A DNA stretch of 64,000 nucleotides from assembly GCA_030595795.1 (NCBI GenBank), contig JAUVCH010000002.1, positions 7,216 through 71,215 of the forward strand, given 5' to 3'. Of this stretch, positions 46,666-64,000 are shown piece after piece (the first letter of the stretch is position 1; every line of letters starts with the position of its first letter). A model generated the notes under the pieces. That model saw only the letters and a program-made list of their open reading frames with translations. It was not told the origin of the DNA and ran no database searches. A program made the position numbers and the translations under genes. The stretch comes from Gammaproteobacteria bacterium. GTDB lineage: Bacteria; Pseudomonadota; Gammaproteobacteria; GCA-001735895.

Positions 46666-47208
46666 ATGAAAAAAAAATATATCAATAAAATATCTCTCGT
46701 AATCGTGCTGATCGCCTTAAGCGTTGTGCCGTTCCTTGCGAAGGCGGCTGAAGTTACACAAGAGCAGATAAAAGGACTGGATGAACAGGTTCAGGATATC
46801 AAGGAAGATGTACTCGATCTAACAACCGAGCTAAGCCTGCTCGAAGAGAAGCTGTTATTTCCCTCCAATACTCAGGTCTCGCTGTTTGTTTCTCTCGATA
46901 GCGGTAAGAAGTTTGTACTTGATGCCATGCAGATTAAGCTTGACGACAAGGTTGTCGCCAAGCATTTATATACTTTCAAGGAGCTAGAGGCTTTAAGGTT
47001 AGGTGGTGTTCAGCGCATTTATACAGGTAATATCAACACTGGGGATCATTCGATGATAGCCAGTTTCTTAGGTCGCGATGCTTCGGGCGAGCAATTCAAA
47101 GGCGTGGCTGATTTTACGGTTAACAAAGCGGTTGGGCCAAAATTTGTCGAAATCAAAATTACCGGCGGCGACTCGGCTGATCAGACGATCAGTTTCCAAG
47201 ACTGGTAA
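46666..47208 (+). CDS. Secreted coiled-coil protein, first gene of the TPR/Ton-like cluster
   Basis: 180 aa. Signal peptide KISLVIVLIALSVVPFLAKA|AE, N-terminal coiled coil, C-terminal beta-rich domain. Reminiscent of the small periplasmic proteins that lead TonB2-type clusters. Confidence 0.5.
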   Translation: MKKKYINKISLVIVLIALSVVPFLAKAAEVTQEQIKGLDEQVQDIKEDVLDLTTELSLLEEKLLFPSNTQVSLFVSLDSGKKFVLDAMQIKLDDKVVAKHLYTFKELEALRLGGVQRIYTGNINTGDHSMIASFLGRDASGEQFKGVADFTVNKAVGPKFVEIKITGGDSADQTISFQDW

Positions 47209-47214
47209 GTAATC

Positions 47215-49290
47215 TTGAAGCGGAATGTAATATTTATCGCCGCTTTTTTCTGCAGCCTGTCAAGCTATGCGGCAAGTGGGCTAAAAGATGTCGAGCTGCG
47301 TGACCTGTATTTCGGCGAGGTGCTTTTTTATGCCTATCAGGATAAGTATTTTGAGGCGCTGGAACGGCTCGATAGCGAACTAATACAATATTACAGGGTA
47401 GACGAATCCAATCTTGACCCGTTATCCCAGAATCTGGGACAGGCCGAGTTTTCGGTCGGCGATATAGAATTGCAATATCGTATGGATAAGCGCGCTGGAA
47501 AAGCCATACAGGCGGTGCTCGGCAGCGGTATCAACCTGGCAATGCGGAATCAGGCTGCGTTGCAGCTGGCGCGAATGTATTTTCGTAAGAATGATGCGGA
47601 AAGAGCGCTATATGCGCTCGATCTGATACACAATAGAGTCGATATGACGAAGTACCCGGATAAGTCAGTCGACGATCTTCGGGGTGTAGAACCGGAAAAC
47701 TTCAAGATAGATGTTCTTTATCTGCGTGCTCTGGCCTATATTAGCACCGGGCAGTTTACCAATGCTGTCGAAATTCTCGATTCCCTGCGTAATGAAAAAT
47801 CAATAAAAGGCTATGTATTGTATAACCTGGGTATTGCGCTGATTCAGGCTCAACAGGAACTACAAGGATTAGAAGTACTCGATGAGCTGGGCATGCTGGA
47901 AACCCAGGATAAAAATCTGCAGGCACTCAAGGATAAAGCCAATTTAAAGATCGCCTATCGATTGCTCGATTCCGGCAATGCGGAGCAGGCTCGGATCTAT
48001 TTTCAACGAATTCGTCTCGATGGGCCATACTCAAATCAGGCGCTGCTGGGCGCAGGCTGGGCTGAAGCTGCACTGGATCGCTATGAGCGAGCTCTGGTAC
48101 CCTGGACAATTCTGCACAAAAGAGAAAAAACCAATCATTCGGTACAGGAATCGTTAATGTCGGTGCCTTATGCCTATGGGAAATTACAGGCCTACGGCAA
48201 ATCGGCCAATATGTATGCCGAGGCAATGGATATGTTTGCCTATGAAATATCCCGGCTCGACGACTCAATAAAGGCCATTCGAGGTGGAAAATTTCTCGAA
48301 GCATTAGTCGATGAGAAATCCAGACAGGATGAAAACTGGGTAGTAAATTTGCGAGAATTGCCCGATGCGCCGGAAACCCGTTATATCCTCGATCTGTTGG
48401 CATCGAGTGATTTTCAGACTTCGTATAATAACTACCGAGATTTGGCGGATTTGAAAGTACGAATCGAAACCTGGTTGGCTAACCTTAAGGTTTTCGAGGA
48501 AATTATTGATATTCGTCGAGCCTATCAAGAGCCTTTGCTACCCATAGTCGGGGAGCGTTTCGAGAAGATCGATGCCAGGGCAAAACTACGCCTGGAACAA
48601 CGAAACAGTCTGGCTGATAAAATTAAGAATATATTGATTGCGCCGCGACCAGATTTTCTGGCGACGGCTGACGAACGCCTGGCGTCGGATCGGGTAACGG
48701 CATTCGAGCAATACATAGCCGAGCACCCTGGAAAAGTCACTGGTGAACAGATCTATCGCGTTAAACGCCTGCGCGGTTTGTTGTCGTGGCGCTTGCAAAG
48801 CGAATATGACCAACGCCTAACCGAAGCTTATGATCATTTGTTGTCGCTGGATGAGACTACCGAGGCATTCAAAAAACGATATGGTTCTTTTATTCGTACC
48901 CGCCAGGCTGCGACGCAAAGTTATGAAGGATATCAATCAGTCATTAGACAGCTCCGCACCGGATTGTTTTCTGCGCAACGAAAGTTGAAAGGTGTTATGG
49001 CCAAACAGGGCAGGTTCCTCGAAACTATGGCGGAGAATGAGCTTGATCGTCGCCGCAAGCGCCTCGAAGATTATCAGATTAAGGCGCGATTTGCGTTGGC
49101 AGAAAACTATGACCGAGTAACCAAGGCGGATCAGGATAAGTTAATCGAGGAACAGAATCAGCTTCGGGAGGAAAAGCAAAAGCAACTTGAGCTTGAAAAA
49201 GAAGCCCAGAAGGCCGAGGAGTCGGCGCCATCAGCGGAAGATAGCTTAGATAAGGGTTCTTCAATTTTGAATAATGTACCCGCCAACTGA
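47215..49290 (+). CDS. Secreted TPR-repeat protein with C-terminal K/E-rich coiled coil
   Basis: 691 aa. TTG start, signal peptide, repeated A/L/Y-rich 34-residue helical-hairpin pattern. C-terminal EEQNQLREEKQKQLELEKEAQKAEE. Confidence 0.6.
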   Translation: MKRNVIFIAAFFCSLSSYAASGLKDVELRDLYFGEVLFYAYQDKYFEALERLDSELIQYYRVDESNLDPLSQNLGQAEFSVGDIELQYRMDKRAGKAIQAVLGSGINLAMRNQAALQLARMYFRKNDAERALYALDLIHNRVDMTKYPDKSVDDLRGVEPENFKIDVLYLRALAYISTGQFTNAVEILDSLRNEKSIKGYVLYNLGIALIQAQQELQGLEVLDELGMLETQDKNLQALKDKANLKIAYRLLDSGNAEQARIYFQRIRLDGPYSNQALLGAGWAEAALDRYERALVPWTILHKREKTNHSVQESLMSVPYAYGKLQAYGKSANMYAEAMDMFAYEISRLDDSIKAIRGGKFLEALVDEKSRQDENWVVNLRELPDAPETRYILDLLASSDFQTSYNNYRDLADLKVRIETWLANLKVFEEIIDIRRAYQEPLLPIVGERFEKIDARAKLRLEQRNSLADKIKNILIAPRPDFLATADERLASDRVTAFEQYIAEHPGKVTGEQIYRVKRLRGLLSWRLQSEYDQRLTEAYDHLLSLDETTEAFKKRYGSFIRTRQAATQSYEGYQSVIRQLRTGLFSAQRKLKGVMAKQGRFLETMAENELDRRRKRLEDYQIKARFALAENYDRVTKADQDKLIEEQNQLREEKQKQLELEKEAQKAEESAPSAEDSLDKGSSILNNVPAN

Positions 49291-52200
49291 TGTCTGTCAA
49301 AAATCACAAATGTATCAATTTCTGTAAAGCGGCATTAGTCCTGGCGCTAGTTTGGATGCTGGCGTCTTGCGCCACAGGAACCGACGGTACAACCCTGGCC
49401 AGTCTGGAAAATGTCGAATTCGAAGTAATTGACGAAAAGGTTACGGACAGTCTCGAAAAAGCACTGGCAAGCTATCAGGACTTTTTGGAGAATACCCCCG
49501 ATACCGAAATGACGCCGGAAGCCTTGCGTCGCCTGGCTGATCTGAAAATTCAGAAAGAGCAATTCAACGAGAATACTCAAATTATCGAGTCGGAGGCGCT
49601 CGCAACTACAAGCACCCAAAGAAACGTTACTGGTACAGAGACAAGCACTGTGCAGTCCATCACCGAGATAGAGATGCCGGAAACTGTGTCCGTGCCTGAT
49701 AATGGCAATACCTCAGAACAACAAAGCATTACCGATCAGGCGAGCCCTATTGCGGCAATCGACGAAAGTGATAAAGCTTTCGACGAAAGGGCGGGTGAGA
49801 AAATCGAAATCAGCGACTCTAGTCAACAGCTAGAACTGCCTGAAGACGAGAGTGCTGAGGTAGGACAGGACTTACAAACCGTCGGTGCAATGGAAGCCAT
49901 CGAGATATATAAGAACCTACTGAAAAACCATCCGTTATTTGAACGTAATGATCAGGTGGTTTACCAATTGTCGCGCGCTTATGAGGATACCGGGCAGATA
50001 GATATCGCCATGGATACGATCATATTGCTGCTTTCGAAATACCCGAACTCGCGTCATGTCGATGAATCGCAGTTTCGACTGGCTGAATTCTATTTCTCCC
50101 GTAAAAAATATCTCGATGCCGAAGAGTCATACCAGGCTGTGGCGGCGCGTGGAGAAGACACGGAGTTTTATGAGTTATCACTTTATAAACTCGGGTGGTC
50201 TTATTTCAAACAGGAATTATATGAAGAAGCATTACAGGCTTTTATCAAAATGCTGGACTATAAAATCGAGAATGGTTTTGAACTGGATAATATTGAAAGC
50301 CAGATAGATGGAAAAAGGGTTGAAGATACTTATCGAGTTATCAGTTTAAGTTTCTCCTACCTCGAAGGGCCTCAGTCCATTGTCGAATTTTTTAACCAAA
50401 ATGGCCCTAGATCTTATGAGTCGAGTATCTATAGCCACCTGGGAGAATACTACTTTTCTAAGAGGCGTTTTGCCGATGCAAGCAATACCTATAAGACTTT
50501 TATTGAGCGTAATCCTCTATCCGCCGAATCGGCTTATTTCAGTATTCGTATTATCGAAATTTACGACAAAGGTGGTTTTCCCAAGCTGGTTATAGATACC
50601 AAAAAGGCCTTCGCCAAAACATATAGCCCCGATTCCACCTACTGGACATATTTCGACATTAATGAACATCCAGATATCCGCTTCTATGTGAAGACTAATC
50701 TGACTGATTTGGCGAATCACTATCATGCTTTGTATCAGAATAAGAAGTTGGAGAAGGCAAAGGGTGAAAATTATGAGGAGGCGATATACTGGTATCGGGA
50801 ATTTCTGGCCTCTTTCTTTGATGACTCCGAAGCTCCGGGTCTCAATAACCAACTGGCCGGTTTGATGCTAGAGCAAAAGGACTTTTTCCAGGCGGCGGGT
50901 GAATACGAGCGCACTGCGTACGAATATCCACCCCATGATGGATCGTCCGGTGCGGGCTATGCGGCTGTCTATGCGTATCGAGAGTACTATAAAGTTGTTG
51001 AACAATCACAGAGATACAATATCAGCCGGGAAATTGTGCGCAGTTCGATACGATTTTTTGAGGTATTTCCCGATCATAAACATGCCCCGGTGGTACTTGT
51101 TGCCGCTGTAGAAGACCTATATGGACTCGAAGATTTTGAACGTGCCATCGTCTATGGTCAGCGTGCAATCGAAACTTACCCCCGAGCCGACCGGAAATTG
51201 CTGCGTTCTGCCTGGATGGCTGTGGCGCATTCTTCATTTAATATCGCTAATTACCAGGGGGCTGAAATTGCCTATAGCGAAACACTGATTCTTACCGATA
51301 TAAATGACAAGAGTTACGAATCACTTAACGAAAACCTGGCTGCCTCTATTTATAAACAGGGTGAACAGGCGCTCAAGCTGGAAGACCATCAGTTAGCCGC
51401 CGATCATTTCCTGCGGGTCGCTAAAGTCGTGCCCAAATCTAAAATTCGTCCGACAGCCGAATACGACGCCGCCACTTCGTTGTTAATACTGAAACAGTGG
51501 AAGAATGTTGCCAACTTGCTTGAAGGCTTCAGAAAACGTTTTCCTCAGCATAAACTGCTACCGGATATCACCAAAAAACTGGCAATTGTTTATAAGGAGG
51601 ATGGTCGTTATTTGCTATCGGCAGCAGAATTTGAGCGTATAGAAAGAGAAAATCCAGAAAACGAAGCCTTGCGCCGCGAAGCCTTATACCAGGCTGCTGA
51701 ACTGTATGACCGGGCTGACGCTAAAGGTAGAGTTTTATTGACCTATCAAAAACTGGTTAACTATTTTCCCGATCCAATCGAAGAGGCGCTAGAAACACGC
51801 CAGAAAATGGCCGATATTTATCAGCAGCAGGGTAATCAAATTGAATATCTGGCTCAGCTCGAAAGAATTGTCGAGATCGACGCCACCGGTGGCAGTGGAC
51901 GTACAGACAGAACCCAATATCTTGCCGCGCATGCCGCGTTGGTATTAGCAGTTCCCAAATGGGAAGCATTTACGCGAGTGGCCCTTGTGGAGCCTTTCAA
52001 GGCCAATTTGGCTAAAAAGAAAAAGCGAATGAGTATTGCTATCGATTCGTTTGCAAAGCTGGTTGATTATCAGGTTGGCGACGTTACTGCTGCGGCAACT
52101 TTTTACCTTGCCGAAATATATTTTGACTTTAATGTGTCTCTGGTCGAATCAGAAAGACCGACTAACCTGAATGATGAAGAACTGGAAGAATATGAGCTGA

Positions 52201-52469
52201 TTATCGAAGATCAGGCTTATCCTTTTGAGGCAAAGGCTATCGATGTTCATGAAAAAAATATGGAATTACTGGATATTGGGGTCTATAACGAATGGATCGA
52301 TAAGAGTATCGCAAAACTATCGGTGTTGTTGCCCGCGCGATACGCTAAAACTGAGCAAGACAGTACTGTTATCACTTTGATACAGCCTCCGAATATCGTC
52401 AATGCAGCGGTTAATGAAACCGAGGACTCGACAGTAATCGAATCCTTACCGGAACCGGTGGAGCAATAG
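49290..52469 (+). CDS. Large TPR-repeat lipoprotein with acidic disordered N-terminal region
   Basis: 1059 aa. Lipobox MLASC, about 200-aa D/E/S/T-rich segment, then about 800 aa of TPR-like repeats. Start overlaps the upstream stop. Confidence 0.6.
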   Translation: MSVKNHKCINFCKAALVLALVWMLASCATGTDGTTLASLENVEFEVIDEKVTDSLEKALASYQDFLENTPDTEMTPEALRRLADLKIQKEQFNENTQIIESEALATTSTQRNVTGTETSTVQSITEIEMPETVSVPDNGNTSEQQSITDQASPIAAIDESDKAFDERAGEKIEISDSSQQLELPEDESAEVGQDLQTVGAMEAIEIYKNLLKNHPLFERNDQVVYQLSRAYEDTGQIDIAMDTIILLLSKYPNSRHVDESQFRLAEFYFSRKKYLDAEESYQAVAARGEDTEFYELSLYKLGWSYFKQELYEEALQAFIKMLDYKIENGFELDNIESQIDGKRVEDTYRVISLSFSYLEGPQSIVEFFNQNGPRSYESSIYSHLGEYYFSKRRFADASNTYKTFIERNPLSAESAYFSIRIIEIYDKGGFPKLVIDTKKAFAKTYSPDSTYWTYFDINEHPDIRFYVKTNLTDLANHYHALYQNKKLEKAKGENYEEAIYWYREFLASFFDDSEAPGLNNQLAGLMLEQKDFFQAAGEYERTAYEYPPHDGSSGAGYAAVYAYREYYKVVEQSQRYNISREIVRSSIRFFEVFPDHKHAPVVLVAAVEDLYGLEDFERAIVYGQRAIETYPRADRKLLRSAWMAVAHSSFNIANYQGAEIAYSETLILTDINDKSYESLNENLAASIYKQGEQALKLEDHQLAADHFLRVAKVVPKSKIRPTAEYDAATSLLILKQWKNVANLLEGFRKRFPQHKLLPDITKKLAIVYKEDGRYLLSAAEFERIERENPENEALRREALYQAAELYDRADAKGRVLLTYQKLVNYFPDPIEEALETRQKMADIYQQQGNQIEYLAQLERIVEIDATGGSGRTDRTQYLAAHAALVLAVPKWEAFTRVALVEPFKANLAKKKKRMSIAIDSFAKLVDYQVGDVTAAATFYLAEIYFDFNVSLVESERPTNLNDEELEEYELIIEDQAYPFEAKAIDVHEKNMELLDIGVYNEWIDKSIAKLSVLLPARYAKTEQDSTVITLIQPPNIVNAAVNETEDSTVIESLPEPVEQ

Positions 52470-52473
52470 GGTT

Positions 52474-53085
52474 ATGATAAAAACATTTCATACTGGGGTG
52501 GTGATATTAGGCTGTTTGATCTTAATTTCCTGTGCCGGGGGTCAGGCACCGCGTGTTGAAAAAGCTGCGGCAGTAAAGTTATCCCCACCGCCAGAAGATT
52601 CGGCATATATTAATCTGGACGCAGATATTGAGTCGGATTTCCTCGATGCAGTAGACAGGATGGAAAATAGTGACTATGTATCGGCAATAGAAAAGCTGGA
52701 ATCGGTTATAGGTCGCGAAAAACGGTTGATTGCACCGTTTGTCAATATTGCGATTGCGTATCGCAAAACAGGTGAAGTTGAGCAGGCAGAAAAAAATCTG
52801 GCCAAAGCCCTGGAGTTGGACCCTGTGCATCCCGTTGCGAATAACGAGCTGGGTTTAATTTACCGTCAGGCCGGAAAATTTGAGGAAGCCAGAGCGGTCT
52901 ATGAGCTGGTGATCAAAAACCATCCAGATTCCACTGCGGCAATGATTAATCTAGGCGTATTATGTGATTTGTATATGCACGATTATGAATGTGCCCTCGA
53001 ACAATTTGAGCGTTATCTGGCGCTAAATCCGGATGATAAGAAAATTTTCATCTGGGTAGCTGATGTAAAACAAAGAGTAAAATAA
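52474..53085 (+). CDS. Small TPR-repeat lipoprotein
   Basis: 203 aa. Lipobox LILISC, three to four clear TPR units. Confidence 0.6.
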   Translation: MIKTFHTGVVILGCLILISCAGGQAPRVEKAAAVKLSPPPEDSAYINLDADIESDFLDAVDRMENSDYVSAIEKLESVIGREKRLIAPFVNIAIAYRKTGEVEQAEKNLAKALELDPVHPVANNELGLIYRQAGKFEEARAVYELVIKNHPDSTAAMINLGVLCDLYMHDYECALEQFERYLALNPDDKKIFIWVADVKQRVK

Positions 53086-53104: not shown

Positions 53105-53389
53105 ATGTTAATTAGAATTCTATTTAGTTTAGTAATTGCCGGAGTAACCTTGCAAGCGCCCGTCATGGCCCAGGAAAAAAAAATTGATTCCGACGTTAAG
53201 GAACTATCTGGCATCTCGATCATAGGTAATCAGGAAGCGCCCAAATCGCTTTACATTATACCCTGGCAAAACTCCGAAGTTGGGGTGGCCAGCAGTTTAC
53301 AATCAGGTCTGTTTGACGACAGTATGAAACCTTTGTCCAAAGAAGTGTTTCTGAGAGAGCTTAATTTTTACGAATTAAGTCATAATTGA
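53105..53389 (+). CDS. Small secreted protein of the Ton-like cluster
   Basis: 94 aa with signal peptide. Confidence 0.4.
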   Translation: MLIRILFSLVIAGVTLQAPVMAQEKKIDSDVKELSGISIIGNQEAPKSLYIIPWQNSEVGVASSLQSGLFDDSMKPLSKEVFLRELNFYELSHN

Positions 53390-53431: not shown

Positions 53432-54442
53432 ATGAGTGAACACAATACCAATCAGAGTGAGCTGGATACTTCAGTAGACACAGAGGCTCCGAGCGGTCAG
53501 GAAAATTTGAGCGAGCCGAGCACTACGGACGGTAATGAGATTACCGAATCTCCAGATGTAGCAGAAATTCTGGAGTCTTCTGGAGTCGTGGATGCGGCTG
53601 GTGGCTTCGACCCCCTAAGCTATGTTGAAACCATCGTGTCGTTTTTCCAGACTGGTGGTGCGTTTATGTATCCAATACTGATCGTCTTATCGGTGGGGTT
53701 AGCGATATCAATCGAGCGTTACATCAAACTCACTTACGAGCGCGGGATTAATCGCAAAATGTGGAATAAGCTGCAGCCAGTTCTGGCTGAAGCAGATTTT
53801 GACACGGCTCGAGAATTAGTTGCCCTCGACGATAAATCGACCATCAGTAAATTAATGTCTATGGGCCTGGCAAGAGAAGGGCTGGTCAGGCGAAGGGACG
53901 ATATCGAAATCGCCATGGAAGAAAGTATGATGGAAATTATTCCTCAACTCGAAAAACGCACACCTTACATCGCGTTGTTTTCAAATATTTGCACCCTGCT
54001 TGGACTGCTTGGTACGATTATGGGCCTGATCGAGGCTTTCACCGCTGTCGCGAATGCCAATCCTGCAGAAAAAGCGGATTTGCTATCAGCAAGTATATCG
54101 GTTGCGATGAATACTACCGCTTTTGGTTTGATGGCGGGTATCCCTCTTTTGATAATCCATGCATTTTTGACTTCGCGAACCGGAGAAATAATAGACAGCC
54201 TGGAAATGGCGTCGGTTAAAACACTGAATGTCATCACCTCTGCCAGTAAGCGTAGGGGTGATAAGAATCTATCTCCCCCAGAAGTAACAATGAGTGATTT
54301 TACGGATACGGGTACTTTTATGGCTAATGTTGAAAAAGATGTTACCCGGGTTAGTGAATCGACCGCAACACCAGGTGTTGAAGGTTCAGCATCAGAGCCA
54401 GGCGTAGCTGCTGATACAGATGTGCCTAAAAAGCCCGATTAA
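53432..54442 (+). CDS. MotA/TolQ/ExbB proton-channel family protein with acidic N- and C-terminal extensions
   Basis: 336 aa, 3 TM helices. Conserved ExbB core ...ALFSNICTLLGLLGTIMGLIEAF...AMNTTAFGLMAGIPLLIIHAFL. Confidence 0.8.
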   Translation: MSEHNTNQSELDTSVDTEAPSGQENLSEPSTTDGNEITESPDVAEILESSGVVDAAGGFDPLSYVETIVSFFQTGGAFMYPILIVLSVGLAISIERYIKLTYERGINRKMWNKLQPVLAEADFDTARELVALDDKSTISKLMSMGLAREGLVRRRDDIEIAMEESMMEIIPQLEKRTPYIALFSNICTLLGLLGTIMGLIEAFTAVANANPAEKADLLSASISVAMNTTAFGLMAGIPLLIIHAFLTSRTGEIIDSLEMASVKTLNVITSASKRRGDKNLSPPEVTMSDFTDTGTFMANVEKDVTRVSESTATPGVEGSASEPGVAADTDVPKKPD

Positions 54443-55022: not shown

Positions 55023-55510
55023 GAAACAGTAATCGTCGTATCGCGCGTATGGGGCGAAGCCGAAAAAAATTACCTGGCATGAATCTGACATCGCTGATGG
55101 ATGTATTTACTATTCTGGTATTTTTTCTGCTGACAAATTCGGCAACTAACGAAGCACTGGAGGCGCCTAAATCGATTTCCTTGCCCGCATCGGTGGTAGA
55201 GACCAAGCCACAGGAAACGGTAGTGATACTGGTGACGCCTGAAAATATACTGGTTCAGGGTAAAATAGTTTCGAGCACAGTAGATGTTAATAATAGCCCG
55301 GCAGTTGTGGTGGAAGCGATAAAGAAAGCGTTGTTAGTACAGCGAAGCAGGGCAATCGGTATCGATGTAAGCAAAGAACCTGAAGTAAACATATTGGCCG
55401 ACAGGAAAATACCTTTCAGTCTGCTGAAAAAAATTATGTCCAGTTGTACCAGTGCAGGATATAGCAAGATCTCGTTGGCTGTAATTCAGAAAGCATCGCA
55501 GAGTTCGTAG
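55019..55510 (+). CDS. ExbD/TolR-family protein
   Basis: 163 aa. MNLTSLMDVFTILVFFLL TM helix, ExbD-like periplasmic domain. 4-nt overlaps with both neighbours. Confidence 0.75.
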   Translation: MRNSNRRIARMGRSRKKLPGMNLTSLMDVFTILVFFLLTNSATNEALEAPKSISLPASVVETKPQETVVILVTPENILVQGKIVSSTVDVNNSPAVVVEAIKKALLVQRSRAIGIDVSKEPEVNILADRKIPFSLLKKIMSSCTSAGYSKISLAVIQKASQSS

Positions 55511-55516: not shown

Positions 55517-56923
55517 ATGGACGATATCAGTAAAAGAAAGAAAAAAGTCAGGGCCAAGCAAAAGCGAGCCTGGCGACTCCTTTTGGAATGCAAAAGTCAA
55601 CAGCGGGATATTGAGGCTGAACATGTCAGGTTACTAAAGAAAAGAGTGCGTTACGACGCGCTTATTGAGGTATCGACAAATCTGGCCAGATTAGACGCGT
55701 TAGGCGCGTCAGATCTTTTCTGGGGTGGGTTGGGTGAAGAGAGGCGTGGGCGAGATCACCTCGCTCGCGTGCATAATCTGGTTACTGAATACGAGAGTCG
55801 ACTCGAAGCCTCAATACAGGCTCGCCAGGATATCTGGAATAAAATTCAGGTACTCAACGATAAAACTAGTGAATACAAAGAGCAGGGCCAGGTACTACTC
55901 GAAGTAGAGGAAGAATCTCGTGATGAGTTTGTTATTGATCGGGAACCAGGGGGGTCGTTATATCGTACCTCAGTCATGCCCTGGACGGTTCATGGAGAGG
56001 ATGAGAAGCGCTTTCGAAAAATATTACTGCTGATATTGTTTTTAACTATTTTGCTGGGTTACCTGGTTCCTTCGTGGAATATAACGGTAGTCGAAAGAGA
56101 GGTAAAAATAGAAGTGCCTGAGCGCCTCGCCAGGCTATTGCTTGAGAAGGCGCCACCACCACCTCCACCGAAGAAAGAAGAAGTCGAGGAAGAGAAAGAG
56201 GAAGAGGAAGAGCCAAAACCGGAGAAAAAAGAGGAGAAGAAGGAAGAAATTGAGAAGAAGCCTGAACCCGAGCAAAAGCCGAAGCCGACCAAGGAGAAAA
56301 AGCCGGTCAAGAAAAAGGCCCAAAGTGCCGGTGTGCTGGCCTTCAAGAATGACTTTGCTGGGTTGCTGGATCTCGATAGTGATGTAGATAGCAAGCTGGG
56401 AGCTAAAGCCAGTCTTACCAATCTTGGGGCCACTGCAAAGAAAAGCACCAGATCAATAATTACTTCTCAGTCAACATCGGGCTCAGGTGGAATCAATACT
56501 GCGGCGATTAGTAAAAATGTCGGCGGCACGGGCAGTGGCCTTGAAGGAGTTGGCTTCTCTCGTGTCGAAAGTACAATCGGCACAGAATATGCGACTGACG
56601 ATCGACCTTTAAGTGAAGGGCCAGGACCTTCCCGTACAGACGAAGAAATCCAGATCGTATTTGATAAATACAAATCTGCGCTATACCGAATTTATAATCG
56701 GGAACTACGTAAGAATCCCACCCTACAGGGCAAAATGGTGCTACGTTTGACTATTGAGCCCGATGGTAAGGTATCCGCTGCTAGTGTGGAATCTAGCGAT
56801 ATGGATGCCCCGGATCTGGATAAAAAGATTGTCGCCAGGGTAAAGAAGTTTAAGTTCGGAGCGAAGGAGGGAGTGCCTACCATAACGATTCTCTTCCCCA
56901 TTGACTTTCTACCCGCAAACTAG
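55517..56923 (+). CDS. TonB-family energy transducer-like protein with long Pro/Glu/Lys-rich linker
   Basis: 468 aa. Cytoplasmic coiled-coil N-terminus, TM helix ILLLILFLTILLGYLV, PPPPPPKKEEVEEEKEEEEEPKPEKKEEKK... linker, S/T/G-rich segment, C-terminal TonB-like domain (...KMVLRLTIEPDGKVSAASVESSDMD...). Confidence 0.7.
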   Translation: MDDISKRKKKVRAKQKRAWRLLLECKSQQRDIEAEHVRLLKKRVRYDALIEVSTNLARLDALGASDLFWGGLGEERRGRDHLARVHNLVTEYESRLEASIQARQDIWNKIQVLNDKTSEYKEQGQVLLEVEEESRDEFVIDREPGGSLYRTSVMPWTVHGEDEKRFRKILLLILFLTILLGYLVPSWNITVVEREVKIEVPERLARLLLEKAPPPPPPKKEEVEEEKEEEEEPKPEKKEEKKEEIEKKPEPEQKPKPTKEKKPVKKKAQSAGVLAFKNDFAGLLDLDSDVDSKLGAKASLTNLGATAKKSTRSIITSQSTSGSGGINTAAISKNVGGTGSGLEGVGFSRVESTIGTEYATDDRPLSEGPGPSRTDEEIQIVFDKYKSALYRIYNRELRKNPTLQGKMVLRLTIEPDGKVSAASVESSDMDAPDLDKKIVARVKKFKFGAKEGVPTITILFPIDFLPAN

Positions 56924-57232
56924 GGCGGAATCATCTGCCTATTCTTCCCGCTTCGCAAATAAACGTAAATTTTCGGTTCTGCTGGCATGTATAATGAAAA
57001 ATTTAACATTATTAGTTAAACTATTGAAAATAATAAGGAAAGCGTAACTATTTTTATTGTTGTTCAGACCTCATCGTCTATACTAAATTGTGCAATATGC
57101 CCCAGTGGCCCGCGTTGCTAAATGAAAGGCCTTTTCTATTGAATTAAAGATCCGATAACCAGAACTGACACTGTTGTGAAAAAAATATTATCAGCACTTC
57201 TGAGTTGGTTCGCCCTTAAAGCTGAGGGCGAA

Positions 57233-60200
57233 ATGCTCTCAGATGCCCGGGAATCCAATACCAGAACTACAGGCAGATCGAAGTCTGGGTTATGGCTGCT
57301 ACTTTTGTTGATGCTGTTTGGGGTGGCATCACCGGCGCTTGCGGGTGAGTTTTGCGTACAAAACCCCAGCTTTTTTGGCGTCGACGATACTGGTGACGGC
57401 ATTAACGATTTTGGTATTGTTGATGGTGAAGATCCTGCCACTGTGCAATTCATTAACGACAACAATGTTACTCAGATCACTATCGATGGTGATTGTACTT
57501 TTCGCAACTGGACGGCTAGCAACCCGTTAACTGTCACCCTCAATTTTCAGACTAGCGACCCGTCGATTTATCTCATCACGTTTGATAATGTGGTTTTTAC
57601 CGGCAACATGGCCTGCGCCAGCATCGACCATCGTATCTGGTTTGTTAATGGCGACCCAGCTGATTTTAATAGCTCCTGTCAGGATTTGTTTATACCGGTC
57701 GAATCTATCAATAAAGCTGTTCCTGCCGGCAAAACCACGGTTGGTATTGGTGAAGTCTTTACCTACACGCTGAAGGTACCCGTTTTATACGACCCGGCGA
57801 ATGACGTGGTGATTAGTGATTCGGGTTCGTTGAACGAGTTGCATAGCATTGTCGTTACCGATGATATCAACGAAATTGGCGCTAACCTGACCCTGGTAGG
57901 GGCACCTACCGTAGTGTGGGCGGCCGGTAGTTCTCAAAGCGGATCTGTATCGCACAATTTTACTAATAGTGCAGGGCTACTTACTTTTGAAATTCTGCCA
58001 ACTGGTATAGCACAGGTGTCAATAGGCGACCAGTTCGAAATCAAAATTACGCTTTCGGTCGACGATACTAATGTTATCGGTACGCAGTTTTTTAATACGG
58101 CAAGGTGGGTATTCGGGCGGTTAATCGAGTTAGACCCGAATGATGATAATGGTGATGGCGATCTCGAACTGACTTTCTTCGACCCCTTACCCGGTGAAAA
58201 TGGTGTCTCCGAACTATTAACTATCGGTGCCCCGGATCTGACTGTTACCAAGTCGAGTCCTGACACCGCGTTAAATATCGGTATACAGGGGACATTTTTT
58301 ATCGATGTGCAGAATACGGGTAATACCGATGCCTGGGATTTCACTATCATCGATGAAATTCCGGGTGCCGCGGATAATCCGGCTCTACCGTTAGTCGCGG
58401 GTATGTGTCAATTCGATCCGAGTGCCACGGTCACCGCACAGATTTTTGAAGCCGATGGTACGACGGCTGTCAGCCCTGTGTTAACAGCTGGTGCCGATTA
58501 TTCGATTAGTTTCAATAATGCAATACCCCTGCCCTGTGAGTTGACGCTAGTCTTTGACAGTTCCGGCCCCAATGCGGCTGTGCTCGCGCCCGGCGAACGT
58601 CTGATCATTAGCTATCAGTCAGAACTCGACAGTGCTCCACCGATGGATCAGGATGGTGCCTTACTAACCAATGTCGCGGGTGCGACCCAATGGTATAGCT
58701 CGGATCCCAACGGTACGCCAATAGCTACTGTTACTAATGAAACGCTAACTGATGGTACGCCTGGTGACACCACCGATCACGAATCCAGCTATACCATTAC
58801 CGCTGGTTTATCGGGTTACTTTTTTACCAAGTCCGTGCAAAACATTACTACCGGGGCGAACCCAGCAAGCACCGCAGCGGCCGGTGATACCCTGCGGTAC
58901 CAATTGCGCGTATTTAATATCGACCAGACGATCTCTTCTATCAACATTGTCGACAATGACTTAATCGCTGCTAATTTTGATACAGGTTCTTTTTCGATTG
59001 TCTCTTCGAATGCGGTTTCAGAAAATTACGACCCAGGCACCGGAACATTAACCATCGATGGTGGCAGCGTGTCAGCGCTGAATTTTCTGCTGGTCGAATA
59101 CGATATTAATCTCGCGGCAGGCCTGACTAATGGCGCAGTCGTATCCAACCAGGCGTCAATGACAGCGACCGGCACGATATCGCCTACCACGTTAAGTGAC
59201 GATCCCAATATTAACGGTGTCGATGACCCAACCACTCTACCCAATCCAGACCCAACCGTCATTACCATACTGCAGCCCGGCCCTCTGCTGAAAACCGGCG
59301 GCCCTGCAACAGCAACCATTGGTAATGAAATCACCTACAGAATCACGGTGCCAGAAGTTCCGCTTGCAACGCCGTTATACGATGTACGCATGCTGGATAA
59401 TTTGACGACCTCGAGTGCCGATCTGGAATTTGTTAGCGCGACGGTTGTTTCCGGTGGTAGCTGGACTCTGACCAATACCGGAACCAGTAATAACCTGGTC
59501 ATCGAAGATACCGGAGCAGGTATCGATATACCGACCAGCGGACAGGCGGTGATCGATGTCACGGTACGCGTATCGAACACCGTGAATAATCAAATTGGAG
59601 ATAGCTTCAACAATACGGCAACCTATACCTACAACCGCACCAACAATCTACTTGCGTCGCAGACACTGGGTAGTGGTGATACCACCCCTGTAACTACAGT
59701 AATCACTGAACCCGATATCTCGACAATTACCAAAATAGCTGACAATACGACACCGACCGCCGGCAGCACCATTCGCTATAGCGTGACGTTGACAGCAACT
59801 AGTGGCGCTAATATTTCGGACGTATTCGATGTCACTCTCAGTGATTCTTTGGATCTGGGGCTGGCATACGCAGGTAGCCCGACTGTTACAATCGGCAGTG
59901 GTGTCGGGAGTGATAATATCATTACCGACCCGGATGTCACCGGTGATGGTATCACCATACCGCAGTCGCTGGTGTGGAGCACGGTAGAAGCGGATATCGA
60001 CATCGATGCTGGCGAAACCATTATCATCGCCTACGATGTGCTTGTGCTGAACAATGTTTTGGCGAACCAGTCTCTAAGCAACAGTGTCATCGCGCAATGG
60101 ACCGGCATCGACGGTGTCAACACCTTCGAGCGCACCGGCATAGACGGTGTTGGCGGCGTGCTTAACGATTACGCGGTCGCACCTGTCGTGGAAACTGTAA

Positions 60201-63200
60201 CCACTGCGGATATCGTTACTACGATTAATAAAATTCGTAGCTCCGACACTTTTGTTGCGGGTGACGATAATGTCCGTATCGGCGATGTGATCGATTACAC
60301 ACTCACCATTCCGGTACCGGAAGGCACGCTTGGTAATTTGCAACTGGTCGATACCCTGAGCCAGGGTCTGGACTTCCTTGGTGTCGTCAGCATCAACGGT
60401 AATATCGGCCCGGCACCTTATTCTGCAATAGCACCATTTACCCATACCGATATTGCGGCTCCGGTCGAAGCGGGGGACCCTGCAACAGGCCCGAGCACGG
60501 TGACCTGGAATATTGGCAATTTATCGAATGCAGTCAATGATGGTCTTAGCGACAACTTCGTCATCGTTTATCAGGCGCAGGTACTTAACAACGATGTACT
60601 GGTGCAGGTCAACAGCACGGCGCTTAGCAACGGCATCACCATGACCTACGATACGGCAACGGGTACTGTTATTAGTACAGACAATGACACCGTCATCAAC
60701 GTGCTGCAGCCGAATGTGGCAGTGAACAAATCGGCTACACCCGCCAATGGTGATGTCTTCATTGATACCGGAGAAGTCATCACTTACAGCGTTGATCTGG
60801 TCAACACCGGTGCAGCGCCTGCCTATGACCTGGTACTCGAAGATATTATTCCGGTTGGCTTGCGGGCCGCAGTCCCGACTACCACCAGCATTACCCGGCA
60901 CACGACATCGACCGATGCCCTGGTCGCCACTCTGGCAGTTCTCGCCCCGACCTATAGCGTTGCTACCGGCCTCGCCACCTGGAATTTCGATACGGGCGTG
61001 GCTGATACCTATACCATCCCGGTCGGTGAAACTCTGCGTATCGTCTATACCGTGACCGCCGATGCCGGTATCGCTCAGGGCCTGATTCTGACTAATGCGG
61101 CCACTGCTACGCTTTACTATTCCTTCGATGATGAGGCGATACCAGCGGGTGCAGCTTCCACTGATCGCGAAATCTATGGCCCCAGCAATACCGCCAGCAC
61201 TACTTTGTTTACCTCTGCTCCACCGAGCAAGACTCTGATCACGCCAGCGGAAGCGACTATCGGTGAAGAGGTTGTCTATCAGGTTACCGTTCCCGGCGTA
61301 GCAAGTTCGAGTGCGCTATTCGATGTCAGTATTACCGATACGCTCGATACGAATCTGGAAATCACCAGTGTCACCGTCGCTGGCGTAGCTGGTGCTGTGG
61401 ACGCTAGCACCGCCAGCCAGATGAATATTGCTATCCCGACAATTCCGGCCGGACAACAGGCAACCATAGAACTGCGTACGCGACTACTCAATGTGCTTAG
61501 TGCGCAACAGGGCGTCGATATCAATAATACGGTTAGTTACAGCTACGCGTTTACTCCGGGTGGGACAGTGCAACCTACTCTGGCCAGTACCGACATAGTC
61601 ACGGTTAATATTGTCGAGCCGAACATTAGCGCGATCAGCAAGACCGTAGATATTCCTGCGCCAACATCGGGTGAAACGATTCGTTATAGCGTGCAGTTAG
61701 CCGCCAGTGGTGGTGTTGACTCATCCGATGTATTCGATGTGACGCTCACTGATAATCTCGATCTCGGTTTGATTTACGTCGGCAACCCGACGGTTACCGG
61801 GGCGTTGAACACCATTGGTGTGCCAGTGATTACTGGTAATGGAATCACGATTGCACAGACGCTGGTGTGGAGTTCGGCTGCTGTCGATACGAACATAGAT
61901 ATTGTCGAGGGCACGCCGATAACCATCGATTACGATGTGCGTCTCGACAACAGTGTCCTGGCTGGGCAAATTCTGAATAACAGCGCCGTCGCGCAGTGGA
62001 CCGGCATCGATGGTGCCAATGGCTTCGAACGCGATGGCTCCGATGGTATCGGCGGGTTAAATGACTACATCACCGTACCTGCCACGGTCGCACTCAATTT
62101 ACCCGGCATCAACACCACTATTAGCAAGCTACGTAGTAGCGATACCTTCGGTGCTGCCGATGACGATGTGCGAATTGGGGATATCGTCGAATATACGCTA
62201 ACAATTCCGATGCCAGAAGGTTCAATAAGCAATTTGCAACTGGTCGACACGCTGCCGCAGGGGCTCGATTTTGAAGGTATCGTCAGTATCAATGGCAATA
62301 TCGGTCCGGCACCTTATACGGCGGTCGCACCGTTCAGTCATGGCAATATCGATGCCACAGATGTAGTGGAATCTGGCGACCCGGCGTTAGGCGCTACGAC
62401 AATCACCTGGACTATTGGCACGCTCTCCAATCTACCGGTGGATAATCTGGCAAATGACTTTGTCATCGTGTACCGCGCACGGGTGATGAATCTCGTATTT
62501 GCGCACTCGCTCCTCAGTTTCTCGCTGAATAATATCGTTACCATGAGCTACGATACGGCTAGCGGCACGATCATCACTTCAGATCTGGGCACCGTCATTA
62601 CCGCTGGGCAGCCACTGTTGACGGTTAGCAAGACTGCGGCTCCTGCTGGCGGAGACACTATTATCGATGCGAGTGAGCTGATTGAATATACGATAGAGGT
62701 GGTCAACGGCGGCACGGCGCCAGCCTATGATTTGCTGTTACAGGATATTATTCCGCTGGGTATGCGCAATGGCGCGGCAACCGTAACCATGGTTAGCACC
62801 GAGTTACTGGTGGCGGGAGCTCTGGCCAATCCACCGCTGGTTTACAACGCCGCAACCGGATTGATACTCTGGGATCTGGATACTGGTGTCGCGGATACCT
62901 ACACGATTCCACCAGGAGACACCCTGAGATTAGTATACCGGGTGCAGGCAGATGCCGATCTGGGGCCGGGTCAAACCATGACCAATGCGGCGACCGCGAA
63001 TCTCTACTACTCCTTCGATGACGATGCGGTGCCAACACTCGGTTCAGTGAGCGGTATACGCGAGATTTACGGGCCGAGTAATACCGCCACGACCACGTTG
63101 ACTACTGCTGCCCCTGCGGCGCTACTAAAAGAGACTACACAAACGACGGCTTTCATTGGCGAACAGTTTACCTATCGCATTACCGTGCCTGCGACACCGC

Positions 63201-64000
63201 AGACCACGTCGCTGGAAGATGTCCGCATCCTCGATGACCTCTCTACTTCGTTGGCCGACCTGAGTTTTGTCAGCGTGACCAAAATTTCGGGATCCGAGCC
63301 ATGGACACCCGTGAATACCAGCGGTGATTCGACCAATTTGGTGATCGAAGATACTAGTATTGGCATCGATATTCCCGCAGGCGATCAGGCGGTAATCGAG
63401 ATTACCGTGGTAGTGAATGATAGCGTCGATAATTTTGCTGGTCTGGTGTTCAACAATACTGCCGATTATACCTACACGGTAGCTCAGACTCCCGGTTTAC
63501 CAGGTACCAGCGGCGATATGACGATCATTGGCGCAGATACGCTAGTGCTACAGAAAACCGGCCCAGTCACCATGCGCATCGGTCTTCCTGAAACCTTTAC
63601 CATCGATATTCAAAACACTGCCACGGCTACAGCCTGGGATATCACCATTGAGGATGTATTACCCGATCCGTCACCGGGTGGTATGTGCGATACCGCGCCA
63701 ACTATTCTCAGTGCCCAGGTTTTCGAGGCCGATGGTGTTACAGCCGTGTCGGGCCTCCTGTCCGAAGGCAGTGATTTTACCAGCAGTTTCATCGGCGTTC
63801 CTGTTTGTAGCTTAACCATCGTCATGCAATCTCCGAGTACCGCAATCGCACCCACGCAAAAATTAATCATTACCTACGAAGCCTTTATCAATAACGACAG
63901 TATCGGCGGCACCAGCCTGACTAATATTGCCGCCGCAACGCAATGGTTTAGCGACGATACCGCTGGTGGTGGCGCAACTGGTGAAATACGAACCTATACC
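57233..64000 (+). CDS. Giant secreted DUF11-like ('conserved repeat domain') surface protein / putative adhesin, 3' end beyond window
   Basis: Single open frame from GTG 57176 / ATG 57233 (signal peptide GRSKSGLWLLLLLMLFGVASPALA|GEF) to the window edge with no stop, over 2250 aa. Absent from the ORF track only because it is unterminated. Repeated modules with the DUF11-type signature, e.g. LTVSKTAAPAGGDTIIDASELIEYTIEVVNGGTAPAYDLLLQDIIPLGM. Ala/Thr/Val/Asp/Gly-rich, almost Cys-free. Confidence 0.7.
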   Translation, partial: MLSDARESNTRTTGRSKSGLWLLLLLMLFGVASPALAGEFCVQNPSFFGVDDTGDGINDFGIVDGEDPATVQFINDNNVTQITIDGDCTFRNWTASNPLTVTLNFQTSDPSIYLITFDNVVFTGNMACASIDHRIWFVNGDPADFNSSCQDLFIPVESINKAVPAGKTTVGIGEVFTYTLKVPVLYDPANDVVISDSGSLNELHSIVVTDDINEIGANLTLVGAPTVVWAAGSSQSGSVSHNFTNSAGLLTFEILPTGIAQVSIGDQFEIKITLSVDDTNVIGTQFFNTARWVFGRLIELDPNDDNGDGDLELTFFDPLPGENGVSELLTIGAPDLTVTKSSPDTALNIGIQGTFFIDVQNTGNTDAWDFTIIDEIPGAADNPALPLVAGMCQFDPSATVTAQIFEADGTTAVSPVLTAGADYSISFNNAIPLPCELTLVFDSSGPNAAVLAPGERLIISYQSELDSAPPMDQDGALLTNVAGATQWYSSDPNGTPIATVTNETLTDGTPGDTTDHESSYTITAGLSGYFFTKSVQNITTGANPASTAAAGDTLRYQLRVFNIDQTISSINIVDNDLIAANFDTGSFSIVSSNAVSENYDPGTGTLTIDGGSVSALNFLLVEYDINLAAGLTNGAVVSNQASMTATGTISPTTLSDDPNINGVDDPTTLPNPDPTVITILQPGPLLKTGGPATATIGNEITYRITVPEVPLATPLYDVRMLDNLTTSSADLEFVSATVVSGGSWTLTNTGTSNNLVIEDTGAGIDIPTSGQAVIDVTVRVSNTVNNQIGDSFNNTATYTYNRTNNLLASQTLGSGDTTPVTTVITEPDISTITKIADNTTPTAGSTIRYSVTLTATSGANISDVFDVTLSDSLDLGLAYAGSPTVTIGSGVGSDNIITDPDVTGDGITIPQSLVWSTVEADIDIDAGETIIIAYDVLVLNNVLANQSLSNSVIAQWTGIDGVNTFERTGIDGVGGVLNDYAVAPVVETVTTADIVTTINKIRSSDTFVAGDDNVRIGDVIDYTLTIPVPEGTLGNLQLVDTLSQGLDFLGVVSINGNIGPAPYSAIAPFTHTDIAAPVEAGDPATGPSTVTWNIGNLSNAVNDGLSDNFVIVYQAQVLNNDVLVQVNSTALSNGITMTYDTATGTVISTDNDTVINVLQPNVAVNKSATPANGDVFIDTGEVITYSVDLVNTGAAPAYDLVLEDIIPVGLRAAVPTTTSITRHTTSTDALVATLAVLAPTYSVATGLATWNFDTGVADTYTIPVGETLRIVYTVTADAGIAQGLILTNAATATLYYSFDDEAIPAGAASTDREIYGPSNTASTTLFTSAPPSKTLITPAEATIGEEVVYQVTVPGVASSSALFDVSITDTLDTNLEITSVTVAGVAGAVDASTASQMNIAIPTIPAGQQATIELRTRLLNVLSAQQGVDINNTVSYSYAFTPGGTVQPTLASTDIVTVNIVEPNISAISKTVDIPAPTSGETIRYSVQLAASGGVDSSDVFDVTLTDNLDLGLIYVGNPTVTGALNTIGVPVITGNGITIAQTLVWSSAAVDTNIDIVEGTPITIDYDVRLDNSVLAGQILNNSAVAQWTGIDGANGFERDGSDGIGGLNDYITVPATVALNLPGINTTISKLRSSDTFGAADDDVRIGDIVEYTLTIPMPEGSISNLQLVDTLPQGLDFEGIVSINGNIGPAPYTAVAPFSHGNIDATDVVESGDPALGATTITWTIGTLSNLPVDNLANDFVIVYRARVMNLVFAHSLLSFSLNNIVTMSYDTASGTIITSDLGTVITAGQPLLTVSKTAAPAGGDTIIDASELIEYTIEVVNGGTAPAYDLLLQDIIPLGMRNGAATVTMVSTELLVAGALANPPLVYNAATGLILWDLDTGVADTYTIPPGDTLRLVYRVQADADLGPGQTMTNAATANLYYSFDDDAVPTLGSVSGIREIYGPSNTATTTLTTAAPAALLKETTQTTAFIGEQFTYRITVPATPQTTSLEDVRILDDLSTSLADLSFVSVTKISGSEPWTPVNTSGDSTNLVIEDTSIGIDIPAGDQAVIEITVVVNDSVDNFAGLVFNNTADYTYTVAQTPGLPGTSGDMTIIGADTLVLQKTGPVTMRIGLPETFTIDIQNTATATAWDITIEDVLPDPSPGGMCDTAPTILSAQVFEADGVTAVSGLLSEGSDFTSSFIGVPVCSLTIVMQSPSTAIAPTQKLIITYEAFINNDSIGGTSLTNIAAATQWFSDDTAGGGATGEIRTYT
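59288..64000 (+). repeat. In-frame tandem super-repeats (about 1938 and about 1899 nt units, third unit truncated by the window) inside the giant gene
   Basis: Homologous anchor codons at 59291, 61229 and 63128, e.g. LKTGGPATATIGNEITYRITVP / SKTLITPAEATIGEEVVYQVTVP / LKETTQTTAFIGEQFTYRITVP. Long stretches, e.g. gcgcagtggaccggcatcga at 60096 and 61993, are about 80% identical at nucleotide level. 57.4-59.3 kb holds a more divergent copy. Confidence 0.7.

Follow-up and report, generated by a model that had tools for sequence, protein, structure and literature searches.

What does a TonB-like, proton-driven motor serve when its genes lie directly in front of the gene for a giant repetitive surface protein? 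This question is raised by a 64,000-nucleotide stretch of DNA from a Gammaproteobacteria bacterium (GenBank assembly GCA_030595795.1, contig JAUVCH010000002.1, positions 7,216 to 71,215 of the forward strand), the whole of which is called the window here. It contains a block of nine genes followed by a giant gene of the DUF11 family, and the original prediction, made from the sequence of the window, took block and giant for a possible functional unit. Comparison with related loci indicates that the block corresponds to the previously described Agl-Glt core complex, that a DUF11 giant accompanies it, and that the giant is in turn followed by a gene for an OmpA-repeat protein. We put the probability that block, giant and this partner form one functional unit at about 0.9.

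Organization of the locus

Nine open reading frames (ORFs) on the + strand are packed into positions 46666-56923 with spacings of -4 to +42 bp. These genes, the gap behind them and the giant gene are as follows (lengths in amino acids, aa).

46666..47208, + strand: p180, a secreted protein of 180 aa with a signal peptide ending in AKA before AE and an N-terminal coiled coil, the first gene of the block (read from the translation)
47215..49290, + strand: GltC-like protein of 691 aa with a signal peptide, weak TPR matches and a C-terminal coiled coil (assigned by position and size)
49290..52469, + strand: GltD-like TPR lipoprotein of 1059 aa (TPR families; lipobox LASC read from the translation)
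52474..53085, + strand: GltE-like TPR lipoprotein of 203 aa with lipobox LISC (TPR_16, 63.6 bits)
53105..53389, + strand: p94, a small secreted protein of 94 aa with a cleavable signal peptide (recognized by its conserved position; no Pfam or NCBIfam match)
53432..54442, + strand: AglR-like proton channel of the MotA/TolQ/ExbB family, 336 aa (PF01618, MotA_ExbB, 85.4 bits)
54468..55022, + strand: first ExbD/TolR-like subunit, at the AglQ position, 184 aa (PF02472, 50 bits)
55019..55510, + strand: second ExbD/TolR-like subunit, at the AglS position, 163 aa (PF02472, 53.3 bits)
55517..56923, + strand: GltG-like TonB-type force transducer of 468 aa (NF033768, 68 bits against a cut-off of 40)
56924..57232, no strand: AT-rich intergenic gap of 309 bp with a GC content of 0.37, between the GltG-like gene and the giant
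57233..64000, + strand: 5' part (2255 aa) of a giant fibrillar-adhesin-like protein, open at the end of the window (ORF, Pfam/NCBIfam)

The ORF of the giant opens at 57143 and is still open at 64000. Its likely start is ATG 57233, because this codon is preceded by GAGGG and the homologue in a closely related locus (L004) uses the equivalent start; therefore, the intergenic gap measures 309 bp. The layout described by the original prediction, a nine-gene cluster reaching 56923 and then a giant DUF11 gene on the same strand after an AT-rich gap, is what the ORFs and base composition of the window contain. Only the length that it gave to the gap, about 250 bp, has to be corrected, as it corresponds to GTG 57177, which has no ribosome-binding site. 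Consensus promoter and terminator matches in the region are at chance level (22 against 20 expected, and 12 against 10.7), and no terminator-like site was found on the + strand between 56923 and 57233. A -10-like block containing TATACT is present in the gap and is kept among close relatives only. The GC content of the giant gene (0.515) is higher than that of the whole window (0.478) and of the nine-gene cluster (0.457), which could result from amino-acid composition or from a different history.

Linkage of the block, the giant and an OmpA-repeat partner

To survey related loci, an alignment of 26 GltG-like homologues was compared with one genome per GTDB species, which yielded 384 relatives. 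The best 80 were taken with 10-kb flanks (L-numbers label the related loci or contigs retrieved). A locus was considered informative if 1.5 kb of DNA or more followed the GltG-like gene; there were 68 such loci (67 GTDB species genomes and one metagenome contig), from 28 Microbulbifer species, uncultured Thiotrichaceae, Thiohalophilus, Thiohalomonadaceae and other gammaproteobacterial metagenome-assembled genomes (MAGs), with GltG-like proteins 44-62% identical. A DUF11 giant was found downstream on the same strand in all 68 loci. It is the next same-strand ORF in 64 of them, at a median distance of 285 bp, and most of these 64 giants exceed the 10-kb flank at more than 3000 aa. In the remaining four it lies within 2.8 kb of the GltG-like gene; two of these, L020 and L071, have only spurious small ORFs in front of the giant, and the other two are Microbulbifer genomes with two inserted genes there. 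Moreover, all nine genes occur in the same order in every locus with sufficient upstream DNA. The flank upstream of the block, which in the window encodes a CCG-domain protein and DUF3144, recurs only in the two closest relatives, and thus synteny around the block has decayed. Judged from these genomes, the adjacency of block and giant is far beyond chance. The co-occurrence and adjacency across genomes that were put forward as a check of the original prediction were therefore observed throughout, and no informative cluster was seen beside unrelated genes in place of a DUF11 giant.

An eleventh gene belongs to this arrangement. In all 11 loci in which the 3' end of the giant is visible, it is followed by the gene for an OmpA-repeat protein of about 1700 aa, which frequently overlaps the stop codon of the giant. 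On two gammaproteobacterial-order contigs the genes beyond this partner are unrelated, and thus the unit ends at the partner. On this comparative evidence the unit is one of eleven genes, ten of which lie in the window, and is larger than the window shows; the C-terminal module of the window's giant and the partner gene are expected beyond position 64000.

Further evidence comes from nine contigs that were looked up from the C-terminal module of the giant or from the partner, starting points that are biased towards finding these two genes. In a giant-first order (giant, OmpA-repeat protein, p180, GltC, GltD, GltE, p94, AglR, AglQ, AglS, GltG), giant and partner stand upstream of the nine-gene block, whereas in the window order they stand downstream. 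This order was observed in Geomonas nitrogeniifigens and Desulfuromonas soudanensis (both complete genomes), in Citrifermentans bremense, and in MAGs labelled Desulfuromonadaceae, Nitrospirota and Verrucomicrobiota, taxonomic labels that are possibly wrong. The giant-first loci contain orthologues of all nine window proteins in the same internal order, mostly 42-72% identical (30-39% for the GltG-like protein). In a third arrangement, on the L091 contig, the nine-gene block is divergent from the giant-partner pair.

It might be argued that the adjacency has no functional meaning and that the giant is merely a neighbour with its own promoter, and the 309-bp gap with its conserved -10-like box would agree with this. 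However, the giant has been kept in 68 of 68 loci despite the loss of upstream synteny, and the linkage persists through three arrangements in several phyla, so that these comparative data effectively refute such an explanation, which we regard as extremely improbable. Given three arrangements, several phyla and non-conserved surroundings, a shared function is by far the most economical reading, and it is on this linkage that the functional unit proposed in the original prediction finds its support.

Several other features of these loci were recorded. In two Microbulbifer genomes (L060, 11544-13696; L062, 4128-6306) the GltG-like gene is separated from the giant by two inserted genes of about 424-432 and 293 aa, for which no Pfam match was obtained. 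In five loci (L007, L012, L029, L050 and L066) the giant is broken; all of these are long-read-style 'MFD' MAG assemblies with 'contig_' names, and the breaks are probably frameshift artefacts. A tRNA gene is located near the 5' end of L044 (700-781) and L052 (728-810), approximately 0.5-1 kb upstream of the block. Compared with the window, L004 (and also L005) is a mosaic in which p180 to p94 are 85-96%, the giant 83-84% and the AglR-like to GltG-like proteins 61-74% identical, whereas all genes of L001 are 85-96% identical; this difference suggests a replacement of the motor block by recombination in one lineage.

Identity of the nine-gene block

The nine-gene block is, by gene content, the already described Agl-Glt 'core complex'. 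This identification was made because gene order and sizes agree with Table S3 of Luciano et al. (2011), the C-terminal AgmX/PglI domain of the GltG-like protein scores above its cut-off, and a partial GltG match is present. The sizes in the window (GltC 691, GltD 1059, GltE 203, small protein 94, AglR 336, AglQ 184, AglS 163 and GltG 468 aa) can be set beside those of Table S3, which are about 640-650 for GltC, 950-965 for GltD, 190-230 for GltE, 220-245 for AglR, 165-185 for AglQ/AglS and 323-535 aa for GltG (for example, 640/964/225/-/245 in Teredinibacter and 648/952 in Marinobacter) (PMC3169522). In particular, both position and size of the three scaffold candidates agree with the homologues of MXAN_2541 (GltC, 640-648 aa), MXAN_4870 (GltD, 952-964 aa) and MXAN_4869 (190-230 aa). 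The families MotA_ExbB, ExbD and TonB_C are indeed present, but the cluster, called 'Ton-like' in the original prediction, is the Agl-Glt core complex and not a generic Ton system.

The GltG-like protein, for which more than 4800 homologues were found, has a cytoplasmic coiled coil followed by a single transmembrane helix, which a PPPPPP/Lys-Glu-rich linker connects to the C-terminal AgmX/PglI (TonB_C-like) domain; the partial GltG match covers residues 169-464 with 69.9 bits, and TonB_C reaches 24.7 bits. The AglR-like protein is 61-82% identical across loci. It carries lineage-specific acidic low-complexity extensions at both ends in the window (orthologues elsewhere have 211-245 aa). In the first ExbD-like subunit the transmembrane Asp is replaced by Asn22, and Asn occupies this site in 80 of 80 loci; the second subunit retains Asp28, with Asp in 86 of 86 loci. 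This pattern indicates a motor axle built as a conserved heterodimer with a single protonatable residue, and hence a motor predicted to work. Among the other members of the block, Pfam finds TPR in three of the nine proteins, and the GltD-like protein contains a YbgF/CpoB-like stretch (85.5 bits, under the 90.1 cut-off; 108 bits in the Geomonas counterpart).

The two small secreted proteins are equally regular in occurrence. In all loci the p94 gene is kept behind the GltE-like and in front of the AglR-like gene; it is probably the 'additional gene' of the core complex mentioned by Luciano et al., because their locus tags skip one at this place (Sde_2958, TERTU_3744 and Tgr7_0540). The p180 gene is found at the same position in every locus with sufficient upstream DNA, and its product is 51-56% identical to the counterparts from Geomonas, Desulfuromonas and the Nitrospirota-labelled MAG. 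In neither Pfam nor NCBIfam did p180 match a family, and no curated family model exists for it; at E ≤ 1e-10, the family comprises 684 representatives of 50%-identity clusters.

Citrifermentans and Geotalea are the present names of genera that include the Geobacter strains of Luciano et al., and for this reason the original 'Geobacter core complexes' very probably also carry giant and partner genes. In the 2011 publication, the clustered core complex was recorded for gammaproteobacteria, a single betaproteobacterium, Geobacter and Fibrobacter, and was left without an explained function (PMC3169522). Later, Wartel et al. (2013) considered the stand-alone core a possible 'basal transport machinery' whose cargo was not known (PMC3858216).

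The giant CLIPPER protein and its partner

The giant begins with a Sec signal peptide (…SPALA before GEF, shared with L004), followed by a head of approximately 300 aa with no assigned family. It is 84% identical to the product of the gene downstream of the L004 cluster. The families recognized in the window part are DUF11 (PF01345, 93.5 bits), TIGR01451 (139.4 bits, seven stretches) and the isopeptide family TIGR04226 (206.1 bits, eight stretches). DUF11 has recently been renamed CLIPPER, a domain with an intramolecular isopeptide bond that builds the stalks of fibrillar adhesins, and in the example studied the anchor is OmpA-like and lies at the C-terminus (PMC12617251). The giant is thus likely to be a surface adhesin, its isopeptide bonds being predicted from these families.

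Two types of N-terminal head were distinguished, type A in 52 loci and type B in 11 loci and the window. Both belong to DUF11/CLIPPER proteins with TIGR04226 domains, and both occur within Microbulbifer. Its species carry one or the other of these mutually unrelated head/stalk types (L037, L052, L064, L075 and L079 versus L022, L030, L042 and L047) and have the same C-terminal module, which implies modular exchange of the presumably exposed part of the adhesin. Two complete giants, one of each head type, share a conserved C-terminus of about 330 aa. A search with these last 330 aa found 1508 proteins; identities among the top 120 are 60-87%, and almost all of these are fragments cut short by contig ends. 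This module is far better conserved than the stalk, with approximately 60% identity of the Microbulbifer sequence to those of Geomonas, Desulfuromonas and the Nitrospirota-labelled MAG. An AlphaFold2 model of a related module, with a pLDDT (predicted local distance difference test) of 86.6, contains CLIPPER-type and SdrD_B-type sandwiches and a small beta-alpha-beta-alpha-beta domain; in the PDB it is matched best by Gram-positive pilins (BcpA, SpaD and RrgB), by SdrD and by the solved CLIPPER domain 9ifr. Further searches of the PDB with the head, with the C-terminal module and with p180 gave nothing useful.

The partner has a signal peptide, three to four OmpA-type peptidoglycan-binding domains, a long middle part with no family, and a Gly/Tyr/Ser-rich C-terminal region of about 600 aa. 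It has more than 2400 matches, of which the top 120 are 65-100% identical, and no curated model. In sequence and profile searches against the PDB, only its OmpA domains were matched. The C-terminal region probably forms a beta-barrel, for which the signs are weak: faint OMP_b-brl matches in Pfam, a period-2 amphipathicity with z=4.1 in the last 605 aa, and the strands of a low-confidence AlphaFold2 model. As neither the p180 family nor the partner family is covered by curated models, the system is widespread but unannotated.

The same observations could be read in another way, with the giant as a periplasmic or envelope-structural fibre, like the chlamydial DUF11 protein OmcB, which the motor would assemble or keep under tension between peptidoglycan and outer membrane. 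The giant has a Sec signal, yet no recognizable outer-membrane secretion signal, the partner brings several peptidoglycan-binding domains, and the DUF11 family includes envelope-associated proteins. However, a length of more than 3000 aa, variable N-terminal heads that are swapped between congeneric species and pilin-like isopeptide domains argue for a surface location, as does a survey in which CLIPPER proteins are described as stalks outside the cell (PMC12617251). Therefore, a periplasmic fibre is considered very unlikely.

Comparison with generic uptake, envelope and secretion systems

Three common systems were examined as candidates for the locus and set aside. The first was a TonB-ExbB-ExbD uptake system. 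No TonB-dependent receptor is linked to the block (neither a Plug nor a TonB_dep_Rec domain was matched in any linked gene), and the ExbB/ExbD equivalog scores are far under their cut-offs. TonB_C is barely at threshold on the GltG-like protein (24.7 versus 24.6 bits). As for the SHLS/His motif, the transmembrane helix of the transducer, ILLLILFLTILLGYLV, contains no His, and no invariant His was seen in the alignment of 26 homologues. The second candidate was a type 1 secretion system (T1SS) with a giant adhesin of the LapA, SiiE or RTX type. Here, the giant has an N-terminal Sec signal peptide and T1SS genes are absent: no genes for ATP-binding cassette (ABC) or membrane fusion proteins (MFP) were among the called neighbours in 10 annotated loci, and no RTX/T1SS family matched the conserved C-terminal module of the giant. 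A giant served by a T1SS, which would have spoken against the original prediction, was thus not encountered.

The third candidate was the Tol-Pal system. No TolB or Pal gene is linked, and the scores against cut-offs are 48/221 bits for TolQ, 23/127 for TolR and 85.5/90.1 for the YbgF-like stretch. A looser version of this idea is that the machine maintains the envelope in a Tol-Pal-like manner, stabilizing the link between outer membrane and peptidoglycan around a large anchored protein without acting on the adhesin itself. In its favour, the motor comes from the TolQR/ExbBD family, the GltD-like protein contains the CpoB/YbgF-like TPR stretch both in the window and in Geomonas, and the partner is rich in OmpA/Pal-type peptidoglycan-binding domains. 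Against this stand the absence of TolB, Pal and YbgC from the locus, and the conserved C-terminal module of the giant together with the overlap or close spacing of its gene with that of the partner, which indicate a specific complex. A canonical Tol-Pal system would also be presumed to lie elsewhere in these genomes. We regard general envelope maintenance as unlikely.

Proposed function of the eleven-gene unit

If the eleven genes work together, it is reasonably probable, by analogy with the Myxococcus machine, that the motor acts on the complex of adhesin and anchor in order to export, hold or pull a giant isopeptide-stabilized adhesin. In an AlphaFold-based model of the Myxococcus machine, AglR5QS-GltG is placed in the inner membrane, GltD is a periplasmic pillar bound by GltG and GltE, and GltC docks on outer-membrane barrels that retain the adhesin CglB (PMC11761067). 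On this pattern, the AglR-like channel and the heteromeric ExbD/TolR-like pair would form a proton-driven motor in the inner membrane, and the GltG-like TonB-type protein would transmit its work through the periplasm. The GltD-like and GltE-like lipoproteins, the GltC-like protein, p94 and p180 may constitute a periplasmic scaffold that docks or acts on the OmpA/barrel protein in the outer membrane. This protein would in turn grip the conserved C-terminal module of the Sec-exported giant, leaving the stalk and the variable head outside with the head pointing outward. Proton-motive energy could then be used to thread out and anchor the giant and/or to pull, move, lock or release it.

Several points weigh against this picture. 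Physical contacts, topology and the use of energy are all inferred by analogy, and isopeptide-domain folding outside the cell could itself drive export without proton-motive force, in which case the motor may have another task. The AlphaFold2 model of partner residues 556-1705 is unusable (pLDDT 35.7), with about 24 long strands in a low-confidence model. The equivalog models for the Myxococcus proteins are not reached by the window proteins (69.9 of 650 bits for GltG and 33 of 225 bits for GltE). In addition, the giant may have its own promoter in the window lineage, considering the 309-bp gap and the conserved -10-like box. Finally, the survey covers the best 80 of 384 GltG-like loci, and more distant core complexes, such as those with a short GltG in Saccharophagus and Cellvibrio (323-325 aa; PMC3169522), may lack a giant.

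A more specific possibility is a true gliding machine, in which trafficking motors would carry the giant along the cell surface and so propel the cell, as in Myxococcus (with CglB) or Flavobacterium (with SprB). In favour of this are the homology of the block to the Agl-Glt core and the pairing of the adhesin with an outer-membrane module, as in the Myxococcus model. Riboswitches for cyclic dinucleotides in Geobacteraceae would also suit a surface lifestyle. Upstream of the giant in giant-first loci, tandem aptamers of the c-di-GMP-I clan were identified in Geomonas (two in L088, 464-540 and 665-740), in Citrifermentans (four in L093, 58-136, 285-363, 512-591 and 1024-1103) and in the Nitrospirota-labelled MAG (one in L090, 1205-1281). 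They belong to the Rfam variants GGC and UAU, all at or above the gathering score; their ligand may be cyclic di-GMP (c-di-GMP) or cyclic GMP-AMP (cGAMP), and a small ORF of 53-80 aa lies between the aptamers and the giant. Genes for a surface lifestyle are typically under riboswitch control of this class, which fits the giant-first operon equally well if the motor acts on an anchored adhesin. An Rfam scan of 46000-58000 gave no match at E ≤ 1, and thus control of the Geobacteraceae type does not apply in the window.

However, none of the nine proteins reaches an NCBIfam model for the Myxococcus Group A genes gltA/B/F/H/I/J/K, which gliding requires; the sole GltJ match (35.5 of 450 bits) is due to the shared C-terminal domain, and the genes neighbouring the block are the giant, the OmpA protein or unrelated. 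The Myxococcus GltG connects to the GltI/MglA platform through a cytoplasmic FHA domain (PMC11761067), but the GltG-like protein has none: Pfam finds only TonB_C in it, and residues 1-165 are coiled-coil-like. Moreover, three to four peptidoglycan-binding OmpA domains favour a fixed anchor, and the core genes were stated to be insufficient for motility by Luciano et al. (PMC3169522). We therefore regard gliding as quite unlikely and prefer the reading in which the motor acts on an anchored adhesin. A broader version of this preferred reading is possible and can only be put forward tentatively: core complex and partner may be a hitherto unrecognized pathway, powered by proton-motive force, that exports, anchors and mechanically actuates Sec-delivered giants across the outer membrane, and that is ancestral to both focal-adhesion gliding and the Nfs spore-coat machine.

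Surroundings of the unit in the window

Upstream of the block, positions 26135-28000 and 36964-46496 contain redox genes: an AprA-like flavoprotein, a 4Fe-4S protein, a molybdopterin oxidoreductase (959 aa), a cytochrome b561-type protein, the CCG-domain (HdrD/DsrK-like) protein and DUF3144. This flank is common only to the closest relatives, and its genes are consistent with a sulfur- or redox-specialized gammaproteobacterium. Further upstream, a gene for a CHASE2 adenylate/guanylate cyclase (17030-19282, - strand) is divergent from that of a 1111-aa FecR-domain/TPR protein (19586-22921, + strand).

Comparison with known systems

Many non-gliding bacteria have been known since 2011 to possess the core complex, and the papers concerned state that neither its function nor its cargo is known (PMC3169522, PMC3858216). 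The eleven-gene unit provides it with a candidate cargo and a candidate outer-membrane module. No report of a link between core complex and giant adhesin was found in the literature searched, which did not extend to most subscription journals, and the invariable pairing of the complex with an OmpA/barrel protein and a giant CLIPPER adhesin seems not to have been described before. The question can be tested in the cultivated and partly tractable Geomonas, Citrifermentans, Desulfuromonas soudanensis and Microbulbifer. If the proposed function is true, it would represent a new use of proton-motive force at the outer membrane, account for the handling of giant Sec-dependent CLIPPER adhesins in diderm bacteria, and offer a plausible evolutionary origin for focal-adhesion gliding.

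The closest known system is the Agl-Glt core complex itself. The window shares with it the order GltC-GltD-GltE-small gene-AglR-AglQ-AglS-GltG, similar sizes and domains, and the occurrence as a stand-alone cluster in non-gliding bacteria. As published, this complex comprises seven genes and one extra (PMC3169522, PMC3858216), whereas the window unit adds p180, the giant CLIPPER protein and the OmpA/barrel protein, no mention of which was found in these two papers.

The gliding machine of Myxococcus xanthus (AglRQS, GltA-K and CglB) resembles the window system in its homologous motor, its TPR proteins GltC/D/E and its TonB-like GltG. Its logic is paralleled here too: a motor in the inner membrane, a scaffold in the periplasm and, in the outer membrane, a barrel module with a surface adhesin (PMC11761067). 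In contrast, the window system lacks GltA/B/H/K/F/I/J, an FHA domain on GltG and a CglB-type VWA lipoprotein. Its outer-membrane module would be a single 1700-aa protein with OmpA repeats and a probable barrel, and its adhesin exceeds 3000 aa and is built with isopeptide domains.

Two other machines couple a proton channel to a giant adhesin. In Flavobacterium, the GldLM motor of the T9SS (type 9 secretion system), a proton-driven motor of the 5:2 type, powers the secretion and movement of the giant repetitive adhesin SprB (PMC8986121). Homology to it is limited to the motor superfamily, similarity to PorW is weak and restricted to TPR, and the window system has neither T9SS components nor a T9SS C-terminal signal. 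In Salmonella, the SPI4-encoded SiiAB is a gammaproteobacterial MotAB/ExbBD-like proton channel that serves the giant adhesin SiiE (bioRxiv 10.1101/641415). SiiE exits through a type 1 system (ABC transporter, MFP and a TolC-like protein), whereas the window giant has a Sec signal and no T1SS genes beside it. The original prediction expected a system coupled to proton-motive force for this DUF11 giant to be new in a gammaproteobacterium; the novelty lies in this particular machine and cargo and not in the principle, for which SiiAB-SiiE is a precedent.

For the adhesin itself, the nearest counterpart is the CLIPPER/DUF11 adhesin B9T28_05395 of Acinetobacter silvestris (PDB 9IFR; PMC12617251), which has the same plan of a CLIPPER stalk, an N-terminal head and OmpA-linked anchoring. 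There, a single chain includes the OmpA-like anchor as well, and a motor cluster has not been described, whereas here the OmpA domains are carried by a separate partner whose gene is linked to those of the motor.

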